From a phage: 64,000 bases of DNA. Made by a program: the position numbers and the translations under genes. The stretch lies in sequence record NC_100372.1; one strand, given 5' to 3'. How positions within the stretch are numbered: the first letter of the stretch is position 1; each line of letters begins with the position of its first letter. The notes under the pieces were generated by a model, which searched no databases, was not told the origin of the DNA, and worked only from the letters and a program-made list of their open reading frames with translations. Below, piece after piece: positions 28,966-45,335 of this stretch.

Positions 28966-29042
28966 TGGTCTCCACGGAGTGATTCGAACACTCGACCTCC
29001 TGATCCCAAATCAGGCGCTCTACCAAGCTGAGCTACGCGGAG
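28966..29042 (-). tRNA. tRNA-Pro (anticodon TGG), CCA encoded
   Basis: Manual fold: acceptor CTCCGCG/CGTGGAG (one G-T), D arm GCTC/GAGC, anticodon stem CCTGA/TCAGG with loop TTTGGGA, T arm GAGTG-TTCGAAT-CACTC, 3' ACCA. Confidence 0.75.
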
Positions 29043-29053
29043 TATTTATTATT

Positions 29054-29128
29054 TGGTGGCCCTGGGTGGAATTGAACCACCGTCTGGCGATTATGAGTCG
29101 CTTGCTTGAACCTTCCAGCTACAGGGCC
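29054..29128 (-). tRNA. tRNA-Met (anticodon CAT; initiator, elongator or Ile2-type undetermined), CCA encoded
   Basis: Manual fold: acceptor GGCCCTG/CAGGGCC, anticodon loop CTCATAA, T loop TTCAATT, 3' ACCA. Confidence 0.7.
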
Positions 29129-29129
29129 A

Positions 29130-29205
29130 TGGTGCTGATGGCAGGACTTGAACCTGCAACCTATTGATTACAAATCAATTGCACTGCCAATTGTGCTACA
29201 TCAGC
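29130..29205 (-). tRNA. tRNA-Thr (anticodon TGT), CCA encoded
   Basis: Manual fold: acceptor GCTGATG/CATCAGC, anticodon stem ATTGA/TCAAT with loop TTTGTAA, T arm GCAGG-TTCAAGT-CCTGC; 1 nt after tRNA-Met. Confidence 0.75.
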
Positions 29206-29211
29206 AAAAGG

Positions 29212-29308
29212 TGCTAGGTGATGGAATCGAACCACCTATGTATTCAACGACTACCTCGTCTATTTTCAGGATTAAAAATCCTCGCCCTTGCCAAAGGGCT
29301 TACCTAGC
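29212..29308 (-). ncRNA. atypical 97-nt tRNA-like element (possible Lys-UUU-type anticodon loop; not a canonical fold)
   Basis: Perfect 7-bp acceptor GCTAGGT/ACCTAGC, D arm GCCC-TTTGGCAA-GGGC, T arm GGTGG-TTCGATT-CCATC, but the central region is two short hairpins (AGGATTTTTAATCCT and GACGAGGTAGTCGTT), about 31 nt between anticodon-like hairpin and T stem; A at position 8; 3' end ACCT not CCA. Confidence 0.4.
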
Positions 29309-29406
29309 GCAATATGTTGACCATGTGGCTAGTCGGCGATGACGACTGTAACATTTGATAATCCGGTTCTGCTTCCGGCTTTCGCTTAATTACAAGGTCA
29401 ACAATG

Positions 29407-29497
29407 TGGCGGAGAGTAATGGAATCGAACCATCATCGAGTCATCCTCAACGGGACGGTTTTCAAGACCGCTTGAGCACCATTGCTCCCTACCCTCC
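29407..29497 (-). tRNA. tRNA-Ser (anticodon TGA), type II with long variable arm, CCA encoded
   Basis: Manual fold: acceptor GGAGGGT/ACTCTCC (one G-T), anticodon stem GCGGT/ACCGT with loop CTTGAAA, variable arm about 17 nt, T arm GATGG-TTCGATT-CCATT, 3' GCCA. Confidence 0.7.
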
Positions 29498-29611
29498 TTT
29501 ATAAATTACACTGATAATGACACTGATTTTCGAGCAGTTAGTGACTAGTATAAACGACGATAAATATCAATGTCATTATCTGTATGATTTATGCATTTAA
29601 AAATATAAATT

Positions 29612-29698
29612 TGGTGGGGAGTGGTGGAGTCGAACCACCCGAGTCGCAATGACAATAGATTTACAGTCTACACCGCTACCTCTACGGGATAACTCCCC
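29612..29698 (-). tRNA. tRNA-Tyr (anticodon GTA), long variable arm, CCA encoded
   Basis: Manual fold: acceptor GGGGAGT/ACTCCCC, anticodon stem GTAGA/TCTAT with loop CTGTAAA, T arm GGTGG-TTCGACT-CCACC, 3' ACCA. Confidence 0.7.
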
Positions 29699-29702
29699 AA
29701 TT

Positions 29703-29777
29703 TGGCACCCCGTACTGGACTCGAACCAGTGTCAACGGCTTAGAAGGCCGCTGCTTTATCCACTAAGCTAACAGGGC
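29703..29777 (-). tRNA. tRNA-Arg (anticodon TCT), CCA encoded
   Basis: Manual fold: acceptor GCCCTGT/ACGGGGT (two G-T), D arm GCTT/AAGC, anticodon stem GCGGC/GCCGT with loop CTTCTAA, T arm ACTGG-TTCGAGT-CCAGT, 3' GCCA. Confidence 0.7.
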
Positions 29778-40380: not shown

Positions 40381-40689
40381 ATGCTTAAAATTTTTATTGT
40401 TGAAGATAAAGATATTGTCCAGTTGTATGCAAACGAGAATCATAAAGGTATGATCCTGAAGAAGGCAAGCAACCTTCATGAAAACACCATTCAACCTGGC
40501 GATGTAATTAAGATCTGTGGCTATCTGATACCAGACTCCTTGATGAAAATAACCCACCACTGGGGGTCTAATCCGTTCCTTTTTGAAAAATATTGGGATG
40601 TTGAGTCGCTTATTGCAGAGAGTGATGATGCATTCCATTACAGCATCCAACCATCTTGCAGAGTAACTAACAGGAGGGTCTTTGAGTAG
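40381..40689 (+). CDS. hypothetical protein
   Basis: 102-aa ORF with strong promoter and RBS. Confidence 0.4.
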   Translation: MLKIFIVEDKDIVQLYANENHKGMILKKASNLHENTIQPGDVIKICGYLIPDSLMKITHHWGSNPFLFEKYWDVESLIAESDDAFHYSIQPSCRVTNRRVFE

Positions 40690-41821
40690 AGAATATCCGC
40701 TTATTGAGTCCATAGATTGTCTAGCTGATCTTCTTGAACCTGACGCTATAGTTTATTATGACTTCGATCAGGTTGCATACCAAGCTGCAGCAAGCTGTGA
40801 AAAAAGGACAATTGAGGTAACACATAAAGCCTCCGGACGTAAGAAGGTGTTTAAAACACGAACAGAGTTTTGGGGGAGGCAGAAGAACGCAGTTGGCGGC
40901 TGGTTAAAGGCTGAGAACACCAACCGTGAAGCTGCATGTAAAAAAGCTGGCAAGGAGTTTATTCCGTGGACACGAGAAGATTTCGATGTCTTGGATATCC
41001 AAACCCCTGATCCTGTAGAGAACTGCTTGCACACAATTAAGTGTAAAGCTAATGCAGTCCTTAACTATCTCGGTATTCCTGAAGATCGGTGCGTAGGGGT
41101 GCTTGGAGGAACAGGCAATTTCAGACTAGATCTTCCCATGCCGGAACGATATAAAGCCAACCGTAACAATACTCTTCGACCACTGTTGCTTGAAGATGCA
41201 AGACAGTATCTACAAAAGCAATATAACGCTCAAGTGATCAACGGTATTGAAGCTGACGACTGGTTAGCTATCCAGCAATTTGAAGGTTGGAACCACTACC
41301 AGAAAACAGGAAAGTTCAACAAGTTTATTATCTCTATAGATAAGGACCAGCGAACACTTCCTGGGCTTGTATTCGATCCGATGAGGAACGATAAAGGTGA
41401 TTTTGTAAGAGAGACACCTATGCTCATTGATAACGGTATGGGTAACATATTCATGAAACCAAACGGCGATGTTGGTGGGTATGGAATGTTGTTCTTCGGT
41501 TATCAAATGCTGTGTGGTGACTCGGCTGACAATATTAAGCCTTACCAAGGGCTTATTGGTAAAGGAAAGTTTGGAGATGCATCTGCATTCTCCTTACTGT
41601 CTCAGTGCAGCACACCGAAAGAGATGTGGTTAGCAATTATTGATCAGTATAAAAAATGGTTTCCGAAAGGTGCCGTTAAGTATACTGATTTCAATGGTAT
41701 CGACCGTAGGATTTCCGTAGGCCAGTGGATGAGTATAATTTTTGACTGTTTGTATATGAAGCGAACATTCAATGATCAAACAAAACTTGTTAACGTTCTT
41801 AGAAATGTTGGAGCAATTTGA
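40682..41821 (+). CDS. 5'-3' exonuclease / flap endonuclease (T4 RNase H, T5 D15 family-like)
   Basis: 379 aa; motifs GIEADDW, ISIDKDQRTL, CGDSADNIKPYQGLIG (helix-3-turn-helix); TTG start preceded by AGGAGGG. Confidence 0.6.
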   Translation: MSREYPLIESIDCLADLLEPDAIVYYDFDQVAYQAAASCEKRTIEVTHKASGRKKVFKTRTEFWGRQKNAVGGWLKAENTNREAACKKAGKEFIPWTREDFDVLDIQTPDPVENCLHTIKCKANAVLNYLGIPEDRCVGVLGGTGNFRLDLPMPERYKANRNNTLRPLLLEDARQYLQKQYNAQVINGIEADDWLAIQQFEGWNHYQKTGKFNKFIISIDKDQRTLPGLVFDPMRNDKGDFVRETPMLIDNGMGNIFMKPNGDVGGYGMLFFGYQMLCGDSADNIKPYQGLIGKGKFGDASAFSLLSQCSTPKEMWLAIIDQYKKWFPKGAVKYTDFNGIDRRISVGQWMSIIFDCLYMKRTFNDQTKLVNVLRNVGAI

Positions 41822-42144
41822 TGACTAAAAATTCTGTAGATAATGCAATTATGGAAGCTGTTTTTGAGGATGATCATACAACAGGGACCCTTAAAACAAA
41901 AAATACATTTATTGTTGCTACAGGTATGTGGCGGTTGTATGAAGATGACACTATTGCATACATCCTGTATACTGATGATTACGCAGATGATCGTGTATGG
42001 TCTGCTGTTTTAAAAGAAGATTGCGAGCTGATTGAGGGCGAGCGGTTATGCATGTTTACCAGCGTGGAAACAGACGTTAAGCTTTGCTCTCTTGTGCTAT
42101 TCAAAGACAAAGCTTATTCTCCAGATGAAGAGGAAACAGCATGA
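41818..42144 (+). CDS. hypothetical protein
   Basis: 108-aa ORF, overlapping starts/stops with neighbours. Confidence 0.35.
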   Translation: MMTKNSVDNAIMEAVFEDDHTTGTLKTKNTFIVATGMWRLYEDDTIAYILYTDDYADDRVWSAVLKEDCELIEGERLCMFTSVETDVKLCSLVLFKDKAYSPDEEETA

Positions 42145-42770
42145 GAGAAAGACTGCTGTCTATAGACCAGTCTCTTACCCACACAGCCTGTGTTGTATGG
42201 GACGATGGTAAGCCTGTTCATAAGATTGTGTTACGCACACAAAGCTCATCTGCAAAAGAGAAGAAACCAGGGACGGTTTCTTTTGCAACAGCTGCTGAGC
42301 GTATTGACTGGATCTGCAAACAGGTTAGATATTATATCCACACGCACGGAGTCGATACTGTGGTTATGGAAGGGCTTTCCTTTGGATCGCGAGGTGATGC
42401 CACACGTGAGCTGGCTGGGTTGTTTTACGGTCTTGAAGTTATGCTTTGGGATGCTTTAGCAGATTGTGAAAATGACGGCCTGTTTAAGGTTCACACAGTG
42501 ACACCAACAACTGCCAAAAAGTTTGCTCGTAGTCATCTTCCTGAAGAACTTGCTTTTGAGGAGAAGAAAAAGCTTGACAAAAGGACAGGTAAAGAGCATA
42601 CTGTGAAGAAACCTGTTACGATGGATAAAAAGTTGATGGTTAAGGCCTGCGAAGTATCTGAACCCGGGTTCCTGGATGGGATCAACTTGGTACAAGGTAA
42701 GGCCGATCTCGCAGATGCTTATTGGATAGGCAGGGCGCATCTGGAGGGATTATCGCAAAGCGTAAAATAA
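42141..42770 (+). CDS. putative RuvC-like Holliday junction resolvase
   Basis: 209 aa; N-terminal LSIDQSLTHTACVVWD (catalytic Asp context), VVMEGLSFGSRG (Glu), C-terminal ADLADAYWIG. Confidence 0.45.
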   Translation: MRERLLSIDQSLTHTACVVWDDGKPVHKIVLRTQSSSAKEKKPGTVSFATAAERIDWICKQVRYYIHTHGVDTVVMEGLSFGSRGDATRELAGLFYGLEVMLWDALADCENDGLFKVHTVTPTTAKKFARSHLPEELAFEEKKKLDKRTGKEHTVKKPVTMDKKLMVKACEVSEPGFLDGINLVQGKADLADAYWIGRAHLEGLSQSVK

Positions 42771-43327
42771 GAAAGAAAGCTGTCAAAGCCCCCGTTCATA
42801 GCGGGTGGCTAAAAGATTCTAAGGACATAGCTAACTTTCGGAAAGAATTGTCAGAAGAGCAGGATGGTCTTGATCCGATCTTGTGCGAACCACTTCGTAA
42901 GCCTTGTTTAGATCATGATCATCTGACTGGTCGTTGCAGGGGTGTTTTGTCCCAATGCACTAATACCTTTGAGGGGTATGTGCTTAAATACTGGATGAAA
43001 TACTGTAACGAGTATACAGATTGCAGTTTATCAGAGGCGTTACGCCGGATGGCTGACTATCTGGAGAAAGACTACAGCGACTTCCCGCTCCACAAAAACT
43101 ACAGAGATGATATGACAAAGTTCTTGAGGAGATGCTCTAAAGCTACGATTATTGCACGTGCAGAATCAGATCTCGGTCTTGTCATTAATTCAGAGTATAC
43201 CAAGCATGAGGCTATTGAGGCCTACATGCAGGAGTTTATAAAGAAAACTGAGGAGAGAGATTTCTATGGGGACGAAAAAGGTATTCAATCCTTGCGATTC
43301 AGTTCTGATCAGGATGAAATACCGTAA
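42722..43327 (+). CDS. putative endonuclease VII-like protein (start uncertain)
   Basis: Motif CLDHDHLTGRCRGVLSQCTNTFEG resembles T4 endonuclease VII zinc/HDH core; ORF begins with TTG and overlaps upstream gene by 49 nt. Confidence 0.5.
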   Translation: MDRQGASGGIIAKRKIRKKAVKAPVHSGWLKDSKDIANFRKELSEEQDGLDPILCEPLRKPCLDHDHLTGRCRGVLSQCTNTFEGYVLKYWMKYCNEYTDCSLSEALRRMADYLEKDYSDFPLHKNYRDDMTKFLRRCSKATIIARAESDLGLVINSEYTKHEAIEAYMQEFIKKTEERDFYGDEKGIQSLRFSSDQDEIP

Positions 43328-43499
43328 CTGGAAAGGTGTTGTTGCAGATCGCTGCGTTACTGAGCCTAATTTATGGTTTGGCTCTACAGAGTATCATAAA
43401 GAAGAGCAGTGGTTGATGCATGCATTTGACGTAGATAAGGGCGAATACCGTGACTTCGCTTTAAAAGACATTCTTCAGTTTTACTAAGGAATCTTAACG

Positions 43500-44483
43500 A
43501 TGATGACAAAGTTAACTCTTGAGCAAATTTTAACACTAAAGCAACAGGGATACACTAATAGACAAATTGCTCGTGAATTTTTAGGGCGTGAGTCGCGTGA
43601 GAGCTGGATCCGACTACAGCTTAAACGTGCACAAGAGAATATGTCAGAGATTGTAGGAGAGGCAACGGAGCGCTTCCTTGAAGAACACAAAGGCGCTAAA
43701 GTTTGGGTGTATGATACAGAGACATCCCCAACAAACGGCTGGTTCTTTGGGCACTATAAGACCAACATTCAAACCTGCGGTATTGAAATTATGCCTTATA
43801 TGCTAACTTTCGCAGGTAAATGGTTAGACAGCCCTAGTGTGGTCGACTGTGCTCTTCCTGATTACAAAATGTGGGGCGAGGATATCCACAACGATCTTGA
43901 ACTGATTCAAGATTTGTGGTATTATCTGGATAAATGTGATGTTGCAGTAGCGCACAACTCTGGTTTTGACTGTGGATGGGCCAACCAACGATTTGCATTT
44001 CACGGTTTACCACCAACAAGTCCATACAAAGAGGTTGACACCCTCAAGATGATTAAAAAGGCATTCCGTTTGAATGCAAACACGTTAGAGTATGCATGTA
44101 AATACTTCCAACTGGCCCGACAGAAGCTGATTGACCACACATTTGAAATGTGGATCAAGTGTGTTCATGGTGATCTTGAGGCGTTTAAACAGATGCGGGA
44201 GTATAATGTTGGGGACATCTTGTCTCTTGAAGGCCTGTATTTGCTGGCGCGTCCGTTTGCTAAGCAGCACCCTAACATGTCGTTGTACTACCAAGATGAG
44301 GAGTCAAAAGTTCGTTGCCCACGTTGTGGTGGAGAACACCTTCACGAGGAAGAAGCTTTGGCGTATACTCAGCTGAGTGCATTTAAAACATACCGCTGCG
44401 AAGGTTGTGGATCTGTTGTTCGTGATCGTAACAACATCCGTACTAGGGAAGAGATGAAAAACACCCTTATTCAGATAATCTAA
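43500..44483 (+). CDS. DEDDy-type 3'-5' exonuclease-like protein with N-terminal HTH and C-terminal zinc ribbon
   Basis: 327 aa; HTH-like LTLKQQGYTNRQIAREF; exo motifs VYDTETS (Exo I), AHNSGFD (Exo II), YNVGDILSLEGLY (Exo III YxxxD); C-terminal CPRCGG...CEGCGS. Confidence 0.5.
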   Translation: MMTKLTLEQILTLKQQGYTNRQIAREFLGRESRESWIRLQLKRAQENMSEIVGEATERFLEEHKGAKVWVYDTETSPTNGWFFGHYKTNIQTCGIEIMPYMLTFAGKWLDSPSVVDCALPDYKMWGEDIHNDLELIQDLWYYLDKCDVAVAHNSGFDCGWANQRFAFHGLPPTSPYKEVDTLKMIKKAFRLNANTLEYACKYFQLARQKLIDHTFEMWIKCVHGDLEAFKQMREYNVGDILSLEGLYLLARPFAKQHPNMSLYYQDEESKVRCPRCGGEHLHEEEALAYTQLSAFKTYRCEGCGSVVRDRNNIRTREEMKNTLIQII

Positions 44484-44490
44484 CAAATAG

Positions 44491-44519
44491 AGGGAGGCTT
44501 GCGCCTCCCTTTTCCTTTT
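44491..44519 (+). terminator. rho-independent terminator
   Basis: AGGGAGGC-TTGC-GCCTCCCT hairpin followed by TTTCCTTTT, directly after the stop at 44483. Confidence 0.6.
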
Positions 44520-44528
44520 GGAGGCACT

Positions 44529-45335
44529 TTGAGCAAGAAAGAGTCCAACGACAAATATTACACAGACCCCGAGTATGCAGAATATCTTGTTGGTAAAGTA
44601 AAAGGTAAGTATGGGAATTGTGCATACGTTGAGCCTTCTGCTGGAAAGGGTTCTTTTTCAAAACTATTTTCAGAGATACTGTCGTATGATTTGGTACCAG
44701 ATCCTGAATTTGAAGGCCCAACCCCGTGTATTAAGGCAAACTTCTTAGAGGTGTACCCCAAGGCCGATGTATTCATAGGTAATCCTCCATTCGGCAAAAA
44801 TTCGTCTTTAGCTTGCAAGTTCTTTAACCACTGTGCATCATTGCTAGAGCCTGGTGGAGCTATAGCCTTCATCTTGCCACGGACTTTTGAAAAAATATTT
44901 TTTGCAAACAAACTGGACATGTCGATGCACCTTATTTACAGCGAAAGGTGCCCCAAGAACTCGTTTTTACTTAACGGCAAACCTTATGACGTGCCATGTG
45001 TTTTCCAAATTTGGGAGAAAAAGGTGTGCAATAGGGACCCTGTAGAGATCGGGGAGAATAAGTTATTTTCTTTTAGCACACCGGACGATTACGACTTCTG
45101 TATAAGACGTGTTGGGTATAATGCTGGGAAAGTATTGGGAGAGGATGACCCAAAATCTGAAGAATCAACATATTTCATAAAATCTTTAGTTGATGGTGTT
45201 GACAGAGTGTTTGCTGAGTGCTATTCTTCTTTTCAAGAAGAAGCAGGTAAGACTGCTGGAATGAAGAGTATAGGCAAGAAAGAACTACAATACATTTTGG
45301 AGACCAGGTATGATCAAAAGTATAGACTTGACTAA
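44529..45335 (+). CDS. DNA N6-adenine (amino) methyltransferase
   Basis: Start set at TTG 44529 after RBS GGAGG (ORF track start 44499 would read through the terminator hairpin); motif I EPSAGKGSF, motif IV GNPPFG, N-terminal YYTDPEYAEYL. Confidence 0.65.
   Translation: MSKKESNDKYYTDPEYAEYLVGKVKGKYGNCAYVEPSAGKGSFSKLFSEILSYDLVPDPEFEGPTPCIKANFLEVYPKADVFIGNPPFGKNSSLACKFFNHCASLLEPGGAIAFILPRTFEKIFFANKLDMSMHLIYSERCPKNSFLLNGKPYDVPCVFQIWEKKVCNRDPVEIGENKLFSFSTPDDYDFCIRRVGYNAGKVLGEDDPKSEESTYFIKSLVDGVDRVFAECYSSFQEEAGKTAGMKSIGKKELQYILETRYDQKYRLD

Follow-up and report, generated by a model that had tools for sequence, protein, structure and literature searches.

A stand-alone DEDDy exonuclease with a predicted zinc ribbon among the DNA-processing genes of an rV5-like coliphage

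Related DEDD exonucleases

MrfB (YprB) of B. subtilis, an exonuclease of the DEDDh type, degrades DNA 3'-5' in a Mg-dependent manner and operates in DNA repair (PMC11194089). Among the biochemically characterised members of PF13482, it is the closest to the phage exonuclease considered here, with which it shares the organisation of a stand-alone 3'-5' exonuclease of the DnaQ superfamily (PDB 8UN9; family profile E of 5e-3). However, different from MrfB, the enzymes of the phage family are DEDDy, the fifth catalytic position being an invariant Tyr, and have a predicted zinc ribbon and a putative HTH that are specific to them; moreover, MrfB partners with the helicase MrfA, whereas no such partner gene is located next to the phage exonuclease.

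The same DEDDy Exo I, Exo II, and Exo III motifs occur in PF10108 and in the proofreading domains of family B polymerases (Pol epsilon, archaeal PolB, and HSV pol), but the phage exonuclease is unfused, is devoid of palm, fingers, and thumb, and shares just 12 to 16% identity with these polymerases. A homologous DEDD fold is also present in the exonuclease domains of T7 gp5 and of the phage's own family A polymerase (PolA), and the profile of the phage family matches the exonuclease domains of T7-like PolAs with E values of 1e-4 to 1e-10. In particular, the Exo III motif EYNVGD of the phage exonuclease is close to DYNVQD in T7, and the catalytic Tyr of this motif is found in both T7 and the stand-alone enzyme, whereas the phage's own polymerase presents an Arg.

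E. coli DnaQ (epsilon) belongs to the same superfamily, and its Exo II region aligns with that of the phage protein (E of 0.013 with the single sequence and 7e-6 with the profile). Epsilon is a DEDDh enzyme and carries a C-terminal alpha-binding tail; in contrast, the 327-amino-acid (aa) phage protein has a Tyr at the His position and ends with a zinc ribbon, and no counterpart of the tail was seen in it. An orthologous relationship with the Pol III epsilon subunit was rejected on the basis of this Tyr and of the NCBIfam equivalog models, whose scores are below the cut-off (26.7 bits against 196 for NF004316 and 23 against 222.7 for TIGR01406). GenBank labels such as "DNA polymerase III epsilon subunit" are over-annotations.

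Among phage proteins, the exonuclease is a member of PHROG 403, "DNA polymerase exonuclease subunit," together with Bas59 bas59_0178 ("DnaQ-like 3'-5' exonuclease"), phikF77 ORF24, and LKA1 Q0E5Y0 ("YprB RNase H-like domain protein"). The core and zinc-ribbon architecture is the same, with no structural difference; the family name, however, implies a polymerase-subunit role that is unsupported in the source phage.

The exonuclease gene and its product

The DNA examined (the window, that is, the whole stretch of 64,000 nucleotides) derives from an rV5-like coliphage (Vequintavirus). The exonuclease gene shows 100% nucleotide identity to positions 92844 to 93827 of vB_EcoM-ECP26 (MK883717), and its product is identical to ECP26DNA_00123 (QDB73535.1, likewise in PHROG 403); it is an ordinary phage gene, already catalogued and annotated. 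Its features are as follows.

43486 to 43490, plus strand: Shine-Dalgarno-like AAGGA, 9 nt 5' of the exonuclease ATG, read directly in the sequence
43500 to 44483, plus strand: gene for the stand-alone DEDDy exonuclease, predicted to be 3'-5', with an ATG start and 327 aa
43500 to 43685, plus strand: N-terminal accessory region (residues 1 to 62), with an HTH-like helix pair (7 to 15 and 20 to 28) followed by a linker helix (31 to 62)
43695 to 44258, plus strand: RNase H-like DEDDy exonuclease core (residues about 66 to 253), from Foldseek, profile matches, and PF13482 in relatives
43710 to 43724, plus strand: Exo I, YDTET (Y71-D72-T73-E74-T75), with D72 and E74 invariant in 141 sequences
43953 to 43970, plus strand: Exo II, HNSGFD (H152-N153-S154-G155-F156-D157), with D157 invariant and H152, N153, and F156 at least 90% conserved
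44202 to 44216, plus strand: Exo III, YNVGD (Y235-N236-V237-G238-D239), with Y235 and D239 invariant; DEDDy-defining
44307 to 44435, plus strand: four-cysteine zinc ribbon (C273/C276/C300/C303), from conservation, predicted strands, and sub-threshold zinc-ribbon Pfam matches

Conservation was scored on an alignment of 141 relatives sharing 24 to 77% identity, where C273 and C300 are invariant like the catalytic residues listed above, with a conservation of 90% or more for C276 and C303. All the carboxylates of the DEDD superfamily (the Exo I D-x-E, the Exo II D, and the Exo III D) are present, and the Tyr placed four residues ahead of the last Asp (Y235...D239) assigns the protein to the DEDDy subgroup. 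The first-pass annotation of this DNA had read the motifs YDTET, HNSGFD, and YxxxD in a protein lacking a polymerase domain, and we confirmed both the motifs, by translation and by their conservation in the 141 relatives, and the stand-alone architecture, by domain searches. The exonuclease motifs and the CxxC pairs lie far beyond what is expected by chance.

An exonuclease fold, which the same annotation proposed to seek by profile search among DnaQ-like and PolB exonucleases, was indeed found. The PHROG 403 HMM matches the protein over its full length (E of 9.3e-111, residues 2 to 326 against profile positions 2 to 320 of 321), and the exonucleases of PolC and epsilon are matched by the family profile with E values of 2e-6 to 7e-6. 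The AlphaFold model, obtained with the 141-sequence alignment as input, has a pLDDT of 94.8; a run with 8 sequences gave 63, and the former was used. In Foldseek searches, its best PDB matches are PolB-family proofreading domains (E of 9e-7 to 1e-4, about 225 to 250 aligned columns), with a probability of 1.00 both to PolB exonuclease domains and to a Cas-associated DnaQ domain, and the viral structure closest to it belongs to the "YprB RNase H-like" protein of LKA1 (TM of 0.75). The predicted fold is closest to the exonuclease domains of family B rather than family A polymerases. Furthermore, PF13482 (RNase_H_2, YprB/MrfB) is matched by 129 of the 141 relatives (best E of 5.7e-17) and PF10108 ("PolB-exo-like predicted exonuclease") by 55 of them, and phikF77 ORF24 matches PF13482 with 39.6 bits, the cut-off being 22; in the Pfam scan of the 327-aa protein itself, no PF13482 match appeared at E values up to 1.

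The family comprises 4,722 representative clusters at 50% identity, nearly all of stand-alone proteins of 250 to 350 aa. Members are present in temperate cluster F mycobacteriophages without an annotated polymerase, and SiSi gp35, from a mycobacteriophage, was checked by sequence as belonging to the family. Literature searches retrieved no enzymology or genetics for any family member.

As for the accessory regions, the HTH-like segment suggested by the first-pass annotation is weakly supported: the AlphaFold model has N-terminal helices, and in Pfam, HTH_38, HTH_7, and DUF7626 gave sub-threshold matches to the 327-aa protein (E of 0.014 to 0.09). HTH_7, HTH_23, or HTH_SB are matched by some relatives with E values of 2.7e-9 to 7e-6, and the region is variable in the family, many relatives aligning to the profile only from about position 60. 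The CxxC...CxxC ribbon noticed at the C terminus, instead, was upheld by the conserved cysteines, arranged as C273-P-R-C276 ... C300-E-G-C303, and by three beta strands predicted by AlphaFold (281 to 289, 294 to 300, and 306 to 312). The combination of two CxxC pairs with a small beta sheet in the model corresponds to a zinc ribbon, with the metal being predicted.

The phage polymerase and the gene neighbourhood

No DNA polymerase was found in the window by tblastn with the phage's own polymerase and T7 gp5 as queries (best E of 0.07). The earlier statement to this effect holds for the window and fails for the genome, as the absence is due to the window boundary: the gene sits elsewhere in the same ECP26 genome, about 45 to 48 kb from the exonuclease and on the opposite strand, and encodes a T7-like family A polymerase of 925 aa. 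The suggestion to look for a polymerase-only gene in the rest of the genome led instead to a polymerase with its own exonuclease domain. At the N terminus of the ECP26 and Bas59 PolA, D7/E9, D101, and D205 correspond to D5/E7, D65, and D174 of T7; since the four catalytic carboxylates are retained, this PolA is not exonuclease-less. In each of the 11 further co-occurring PolAs examined, the D-x-E of Exo I and the last Asp of Exo III are preserved, as is an acidic residue in Exo II; the latter was recognised by eye in the phiKMV-like PolAs (NxKFD, HNAMFE), off the aligned T7 D65 column. No pairwise similarity between the exonuclease and the phage's own polymerase was detectable by BLASTP (E of 0.31 or worse).

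A split polymerase, with the exonuclease as its detached subunit, had been offered as one explanation of the gene. Such an arrangement would feature a polymerase without a 3'-5' exonuclease domain and two genes adjacent or co-transcribed; here, the PolA exonuclease domain is intact, and the genes are neither adjacent nor co-transcribed, lying far apart on different strands. Moreover, the exonuclease has a PolB-like fold, and its family occurs in phages without an annotated polymerase. The split-polymerase explanation was consequently rejected.

In the T7-like polymerases that co-occur with the exonuclease, the Exo III tyrosine (T7 Y170) is replaced by an Arg, which is Arg201 in the PolA of the source phage.

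The exonuclease gene lies in the order ligase ... FEN, 108-aa ORF, RuvC-like resolvase, endonuclease VII (EndoVII), 73-aa ORF, exonuclease, methyltransferase, and then ThyX, NrdAB, and NrdDG. The nearest neighbours are listed below.

40682 to 41821, plus strand: 5'-3' (FEN-type) exonuclease (PHROG 107, E of 1e-71), a recurrent syntenic partner
42141 to 42770, plus strand: RuvC-like Holliday junction resolvase (PHROG 159, E of 1e-38)
42722 to 43327, plus strand: EndoVII (Pfam Endonuclease_7, E of 1.4e-7), whose start codon varies between annotations
43266 to 43487, plus strand: conserved 73-aa ORF directly upstream of the exonuclease (PHROG 3715, E of 5e-26, a function-unknown family)
44499 to 45335, plus strand: putative N6-adenine DNA methyltransferase, downstream (PHROG 5172, PHROG 799, and GenBank annotations)

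The large ORFs of the window encode NrdA, NrdB, NrdD, ligase, ThyX, and a ClpP-like protein. In the phiKMV-like podovirus phikF77, the FEN, EndoVII, and exonuclease genes follow one another in the same order, with EndoVII adjoining the exonuclease.

Among 80 related loci from IMG/VR, found with a 16-sequence sub-alignment, a FEN homolog lies within 500 bp of the exonuclease in 20, and at a distance of up to 3 kb, on the same strand, the number rises to 35; with lineages delimited at 60% identity or more, the loci with a FEN nearby come from 9 of 30. Counting either FEN or EndoVII as a neighbour, the number of loci is again 35. Within 3 kb, EndoVII was found in 15 of the 80 loci and a RuvC-like resolvase in 9, and the PHROG 3715 ORF was seen in 10. 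The Pfam scan of large neighbours in the unclassified lineages was mostly blank, while PHROGs identified terminase or portal genes beside the exonuclease in a further 15 loci; neither a nuclease nor a terminase or portal context was present in 30 of the 80, for the seed set used. PolA within 500 bp was found in none of the 80. In podovirus-like contigs, the exonuclease is part of the replication module, 2 to 7 kb downstream of PolA and on the same strand. In the cluster F mycobacteriophages that carry the exonuclease, FEN and EndoVII are both absent from the annotation; it follows that the family may not share one role throughout.

Possible roles of the exonuclease

We tentatively favour the hypothesis that the protein acts as an accessory 3'-5' DNA exonuclease within the DNA-processing nuclease module of the phage, and not as part of the polymerase. 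The free-standing protein, whose RNase H fold resembles that of PolB exonucleases or of YprB, would work as a metal-dependent DEDDy enzyme, and the zinc ribbon, with the putative HTH in the source lineage, may anchor it to nucleic acid or to another protein. With the adjacent FEN-type exonuclease, RuvC-like resolvase, and EndoVII, it could trim 3' ends or flaps on intermediates of replication and recombination, ahead of ligation and packaging, and nicked host DNA may also be broken down for nucleotide salvage. The analysis shows the fold, a complete and well-conserved active site and ribbon, the free-standing organisation, the contexts of the gene, and the exonuclease domain of PolA; DNA as the substrate, the 3'-5' polarity, and the biological role are all inferred, and the gene neighbourhood is circumstantial evidence of the role; the position of the gene past PolA in podovirus-like contigs fits a replication role equally well.

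An alternative role is that of a trans-acting proofreading or editing partner of PolA, similar to epsilon for Pol III, removing the mismatched 3' termini that the non-canonical exonuclease domain of PolA would handle poorly. The proofreading-type fold, the PHROG and RefSeq name, the inteins present in some members, which are typical of replication proteins, the same-strand location downstream of PolA in podovirus-like contigs, and the Arg at the Exo III tyrosine of the co-occurring polymerases are all in line with this reading. PolA/exonuclease co-occurrence was sampled around 240 loci, with a flank of up to 10 kb. In an initial sample, the exonuclease was absent from 80 of 80 loci with a tyrosine (Y-type) PolA and present in 5 of 5 with an arginine (R-type) PolA; over the sampled loci, it is located beside an R-type PolA in 16, in addition to the vequintavirus, and beside a Y-type PolA in 0 of 101. 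However, among the 37 R-type loci of the wider sample whose downstream flank reaches at least 6 kb, 22 lack an exonuclease within 10 kb. Furthermore, in the polymerase tree, every exonuclease-positive tip falls in a single R-type clade, a second R-type group being without the exonuclease; thus, the association amounts to about one evolutionary event. A strict coupling between the Y-to-R change in the polymerase and the exonuclease was rejected on the basis of the wider sampling and the tree, and it is kept as a weak lead. The four carboxylates kept by PolA, the distance and orientation of the two genes in the source phage, the lack of PolA within 500 bp in the 80 loci, the members in phages without an annotated polymerase, and the low scores of the epsilon models also speak against a trans-proofreader, which we regard as unlikely though deserving consideration. 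In the Arg-for-Tyr PolA clade, the stand-alone zinc-ribbon enzyme might supply canonical DEDDy chemistry in trans, with a degenerate editing domain in cis combined with a mobile editing or 3'-end-trimming enzyme that elsewhere could be recruited to packaging or to host replisomes; we consider this scenario speculative and rather improbable.

It is even less probable that the protein is a host-directed nuclease, the other explanation offered in the first-pass annotation, or a counter-defence one, degrading the host chromosome or defence products such as reverse-transcriptase cDNA and free 3' ends. The sole experimental hint in this direction concerns Girr gp37 (273 aa, cluster F1), a probable ortholog, which is moderately toxic to M. 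smegmatis when overexpressed (PMC11075535), but overexpression toxicity is common to any nuclease. The presence of the gene in temperate phages that replicate without their own polymerase and, in the source phage, its position upstream of a nucleotide-salvage/synthesis block (ThyX, NrdAB, and NrdDG) would agree with such an activity; in contrast, literature searches found no report of defence escape or anti-defence, and the conservation and breadth of the family (the 4,722 clusters) resemble those of a core DNA-metabolism gene and not of a fast-evolving counter-defence one. A link with defence or anti-defence systems was rejected: the PADLOC matches are at superfamily level only and represent noise, and the DRT10 preprint that names Vequintavirinae deals with a different protein.

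An RNA-directed 3'-5' exoribonuclease, trimming primers, tRNA, or mRNA in place of DNA, is very improbable: even though many DEDD enzymes are RNases, Pfam RNase_T weakly matches the protein (E of 3e-4), and RNA-repair genes (RNA ligase and PNK, from the Bas59 annotation) are found in the window, the closest neighbours in structure and profile searches are without exception DNA-polymerase proofreading domains and DNA exonucleases, a DEDDy site with HNxxFD and YNxxD marks the polymerase-associated type, and the neighbouring genes are DNA nucleases.

The main value of the analysis is corrective: the widespread database names "DNA polymerase exonuclease subunit" and "Pol III epsilon subunit" are labels given by homology, and they find support neither in the genome organisation nor in the domains of the cognate polymerase. 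That an entire clade of T7-like polymerases has Arg in place of Tyr in its editing site poses a small question on phage replication fidelity. Assigning a function to the exonuclease would cover a very common phage gene, with thousands of clusters and a presence in 1,526 of 50,697 sequenced phage records.

The exonuclease gene and its family

The gene under study, which we call EXO, was read in translation as follows:

43500-44483, + strand, EXO ORF, 327 aa
AAGGA, 9 nt 5' of the EXO start, + strand, ribosome-binding site recognized in the sequence

Its catalytic motifs are YDTET (D72/E74), HNSGFD (H152/N153/D157) and YNVGD (Y235/D239), and its cysteine pairs are CPRC (273-276) and CEGC (300-303). 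Seven residues do not vary in the alignment of 141 EXO relatives (24-77% identity): D72, E74, D157, Y235, D239, C273 and C300. Conservation reaches at least 90% at H152, N153, C276 and C303. The ORF, the Exo I, II and III motifs and the CxxC...CxxC arrangement are present as the first-pass annotation described them, and the motifs are not due to chance. The N-terminal HTH-like segment that it also reported is weak in EXO itself (Pfam E 0.014-0.09; AlphaFold predicts helices at residues 7-15 and 20-28) but recognizable in some relatives, which match HTH_7, HTH_23 and HTH_SB with E values of 2.7e-9 to 7e-6. This region is variable in the family, and in many relatives the match to the profile does not begin until near residue 60.

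EXO is 100% identical to a gene of Escherichia phage vB_EcoM-ECP26 (MK883717; hereafter ECP26) and, among the matches listed of the 120 found, 94-99.7% identical to those of other rV5-like Vequintavirus records. Since it has been deposited in GenBank under several labels ('DNA polymerase/exonuclease', 'DnaQ-like 3'-5' exonuclease', 'DNA polymerase exonuclease subunit', 'DNA polymerase III epsilon subunit', 'DNA polymerase B' and 'hypothetical protein'), EXO is already known, with its family assigned. Twenty 'Campylobacter phage' records also match it, 18 of them with Campylobacter jejuni as host; the only such record among the matches listed, MG065652 ('Campylobacter phage C11', 58,772 bp), is unannotated and 94% identical to EXO. 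These records look like mislabelled or contaminating Vequintavirus sequence.

EXO matches PHROG 403 over its full length (E 9e-111), and Pfam searches with EXO itself returned RNase_T and zinc ribbons, all below threshold. Among the 141 relatives, 129 match PF13482 (RNase_H_2, the YprB/MrfB family), 56 RNase_T, 55 PF10108 (PolB-exo-like), 19 PolB exo1 and 14 PolA exo1. An exhaustive HMMER search yielded 4,722 representative clusters at E <=1e-3 (1,799 at <=1e-30), nearly all of them stand-alone proteins of 250-350 aa spanning the exonuclease core and the ribbon. The AlphaFold model used was built from 141 sequences (pLDDT 94.8, pTM 0.84), one from 8 sequences being poor (pLDDT 63). In the PDB, it is closest to proofreading domains from family B polymerases, among them Pol epsilon (9ne9, E 9e-7), archaeal 9N, KOD and Tgo, HSV pol and Pol alpha; among viral proteins, it is closest to one of LKA1 named 'YprB RNase H-like' (TM 0.75, rmsd 1.6, 267 columns). 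Furthermore, the EXO profile matched PDB sequences of PolC exonuclease (2e-6), epsilon (7e-6), archaeal PolB (3e-4) and MrfB (5e-3). The proposed exonuclease fold is therefore right. EXO scores about 25 bits with the NCBIfam epsilon models, whose cut-offs lie near 200, and orthology with epsilon was rejected. Taken together, these results identify EXO as a member of the DnaQ-like superfamily and a DEDDy exonuclease that stands alone; it is not orthologous to epsilon, nor is it a piece of a polymerase.

Four longer relatives (P0095, P0110, P0123 and P0136; 497-589 aa) match the profile in two stretches, and P0095 and P0123 match intein models (an intein N-terminal splicing region and an intein-containing radical SAM model), which indicates intein insertions in this gene in some phages.

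The phage polymerase

No DNA polymerase was found in the window by tblastn or by Pfam searches of its large ORFs. The corresponding remark in the first-pass annotation is true of the window but is an artefact of it, since the ECP26 polymerase lies about 48 kb from EXO, outside the window. In the relative Bas59 (EduardKellenberger), a 925-aa DNA polymerase is encoded about 45 kb from EXO, on the opposite strand and beside a primase-helicase:

MK883717 4096-6873 (locus L248), - strand, ECP26 925-aa polymerase ORF, 99% identical to that of Bas59
L003:22538-25315, Bas59 polymerase

The ECP26 ORF is mis-annotated as 'hypothetical protein'. The vequintavirus polymerase is a T7-like family A enzyme (PDB T7 gp5, E 7e-16), whose N terminus is collinear with the T7 exonuclease domain (E 4e-5) and keeps D7/E9, D101 (in HNCYSYD) and D205, equivalent to T7 D5/E7, D65 and D174. 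Because the polymerase retains the exonuclease carboxylates, and is not exonuclease-less, the suggestion that EXO is the exonuclease subunit of a split polymerase fails its defining test and was rejected.

The same elements recur in the polymerases checked near EXO relatives (loci L028, L030, L031 and L042; the phiKMV-like L047, L076, L078, L081 and L085; and phikF77), all with the Exo I D-x-E, the Asp that ends Exo III and an acidic residue in Exo II, the last being spotted by eye in the phiKMV-like enzymes (NxKFD, HNAMFE) and not in the column aligned with T7 D65. In SiSi, a temperate mycobacteriophage of cluster F, gp35 is a genuine family member (BLASTP E 1e-21; DxE, YxxxD and the two CxxC pairs are present), and no annotated DNA polymerase was found in the 50 kb examined; nor did we find mention of a Girr-encoded polymerase in the screen paper on the cluster F1 phage Girr (PMC11075535).

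The rV5 polymerase (gp228) was published as 775 aa (PMC3606486), compared with the 925-aa ORF seen here. If the shorter call reflects a late start, the beginning of the protein would be lost together with Exo I and Exo II, and the polymerase could then be taken for one that lacks an exonuclease.

Genomic contexts of the family

In the window, a ligase is followed at a distance by a 5'-3' (FEN-type) exonuclease, a 108-aa ORF, a RuvC-like resolvase, endonuclease VII, a 73-aa ORF and EXO; an N6-adenine methyltransferase and then ThyX, NrdAB and NrdDG lie 3' of it.

42722-43327, + strand, endonuclease VII
43266-43487, + strand, 73-aa ORF (PHROG 3715) between endonuclease VII and EXO
28966-29777, - strand, cluster of seven tRNA genes (Pro, Met/Ile-type CAT, Thr, Ser, Tyr, Arg)

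The 73-aa ORF overlaps the 3' end of the endonuclease VII ORF by about 60 nt and has homologs in 10 related loci. The endonuclease VII start varies by annotation (201 aa from a TTG, overlapping the RuvC-like gene, in ECP26; 160 aa in Bas59, bas59_0180). By the annotations of relatives, the plus-strand block also holds Sir2-like, RNA ligase/PNK-adjacent, ClpP-like and PhoH-like genes. At about 33.8-34 kb, GC skew changes sign (near 34 kb) and gene orientation switches: the side with structural and tRNA genes is on the minus strand, the side with DNA metabolism genes on the plus strand. This would mark a divergent transcription boundary. A 99-nt gene in the tRNA cluster (29210-29308), reported by ARAGORN as tRNA-??? 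with a four-base anticodon, could be an intron-bearing or unusual tRNA; its Bas59 counterpart (97 nt) is annotated as tRNA-Lys.

A similar order occurs in the phiKMV-like podovirus phikF77: PolA, ORF20, ORF21, 5'-3' exonuclease, EndoVII, EXO (ORF24) and, further on, RNAP. We sampled 80 IMG/VR loci with EXO relatives of 33-52% identity, using iterative HMM searches from a limited seed set of window neighbours, stop-to-stop ORFs and flanks of at most 10 kb.

Genes near the EXO relative in 80 loci (within 500 bp; 3 kb; 10 kb)
FEN, same strand: 20; 35; 35
EndoVII: 14; 15; 16
RuvC-like: 0; 9; 10
PolA: 0; 10; 19

The 35 loci with FEN within 3 kb span 9 of 30 lineages (>=60% identity). TerL or portal (PHROGs) lies within 3 kb in 15 other loci (e.g., L062, L064-L068 and L072; L065 is a crAss-like phage), with no overlap between the two sets, and 30 loci belong to neither. 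Packaging genes are thus a second, mutually exclusive context. These counts indicate that the recurrent partners of the family are DNA-processing nucleases and packaging machinery, not a polymerase.

Possible roles of EXO

In EXO, the DEDDy active site is intact and strongly conserved, the fold is PolB-exonuclease-like and the four-cysteine ribbon is conserved. The protein stands alone, its family has two recurrent genomic contexts, and its cognate polymerase has a DEDD domain of its own. No biochemical or genetic study of the family was found in the literature, and the rV5 genome paper, which lists a polymerase, a ligase and two helicases, does not mention the gene (PMC3606486). The characterized PF13482 member, MrfB/YprB, is a Mg-dependent 3'-5' DNA exonuclease (DEDDh) acting with the helicase MrfA in mitomycin C repair (PMC11194089).

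A role as trans-proofreader might be read from the polymerase's Exo III motif, which is DRVFED (R201) in the vequintavirus enzyme versus DYNVQD (with the catalytic Tyr170) in T7. T7-like polymerases found together with the stand-alone exonuclease carry this Arg, and the change affects a whole clade, 43 of 132 non-redundant T7-like polymerases sampled. In a T7-led sample all 80 polymerases had Tyr and none the exonuclease in its flanks.

Stand-alone exonuclease in polymerase flanks, R-type (Arg)-centred sample (present; absent, downstream flank of at least 6 kb; absent, shorter flank)
Arg: 16; 22; 17
Tyr: 0; 11; 10

Two more exonuclease-positive loci were unscored, their polymerase ORFs being N-terminally truncated. 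The exonucleases stand beside R-type polymerases only, yet not beside all of them, and the association is therefore one-sided. In the NJ tree, the exonuclease-positive tips all fall within one R-type clade, a second R-type group being devoid of it; under parsimony, the residue changed between Y and R 4 times and the exonuclease was gained or lost 7 times. Since shared ancestry can account for this pattern, its support for a functional link between polymerase and exonuclease is weak. Trans-proofreading for the R-type polymerase seems rather doubtful to us. The Arg-type editing site of a clade of T7-like polymerases raises a modest side question that can be tested.

A host-directed or counter-defence nuclease, an idea already raised in part by the first-pass annotation, is distinctly improbable. 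Overexpression of Girr gp37, a 273-aa 'DnaQ-like exonuclease', is moderately toxic to M. smegmatis (PMC11075535); we liken it by description to SiSi gp35, which shares its cluster, length and annotation. An RNase is highly improbable.

EXO had been deposited before and belongs to a phage family that is very common and annotated but uncharacterized. The reading we favour, tentatively and with slightly less than even confidence, is that of a 3'-5' DNA exonuclease that would trim 3' ends or flaps on intermediates of replication, recombination or packaging, and may do so on host DNA too. The FEN-type exonuclease, resolvases and ligase encoded nearby would be its working partners, and its zinc ribbon and HTH may supply nucleic-acid or partner binding.
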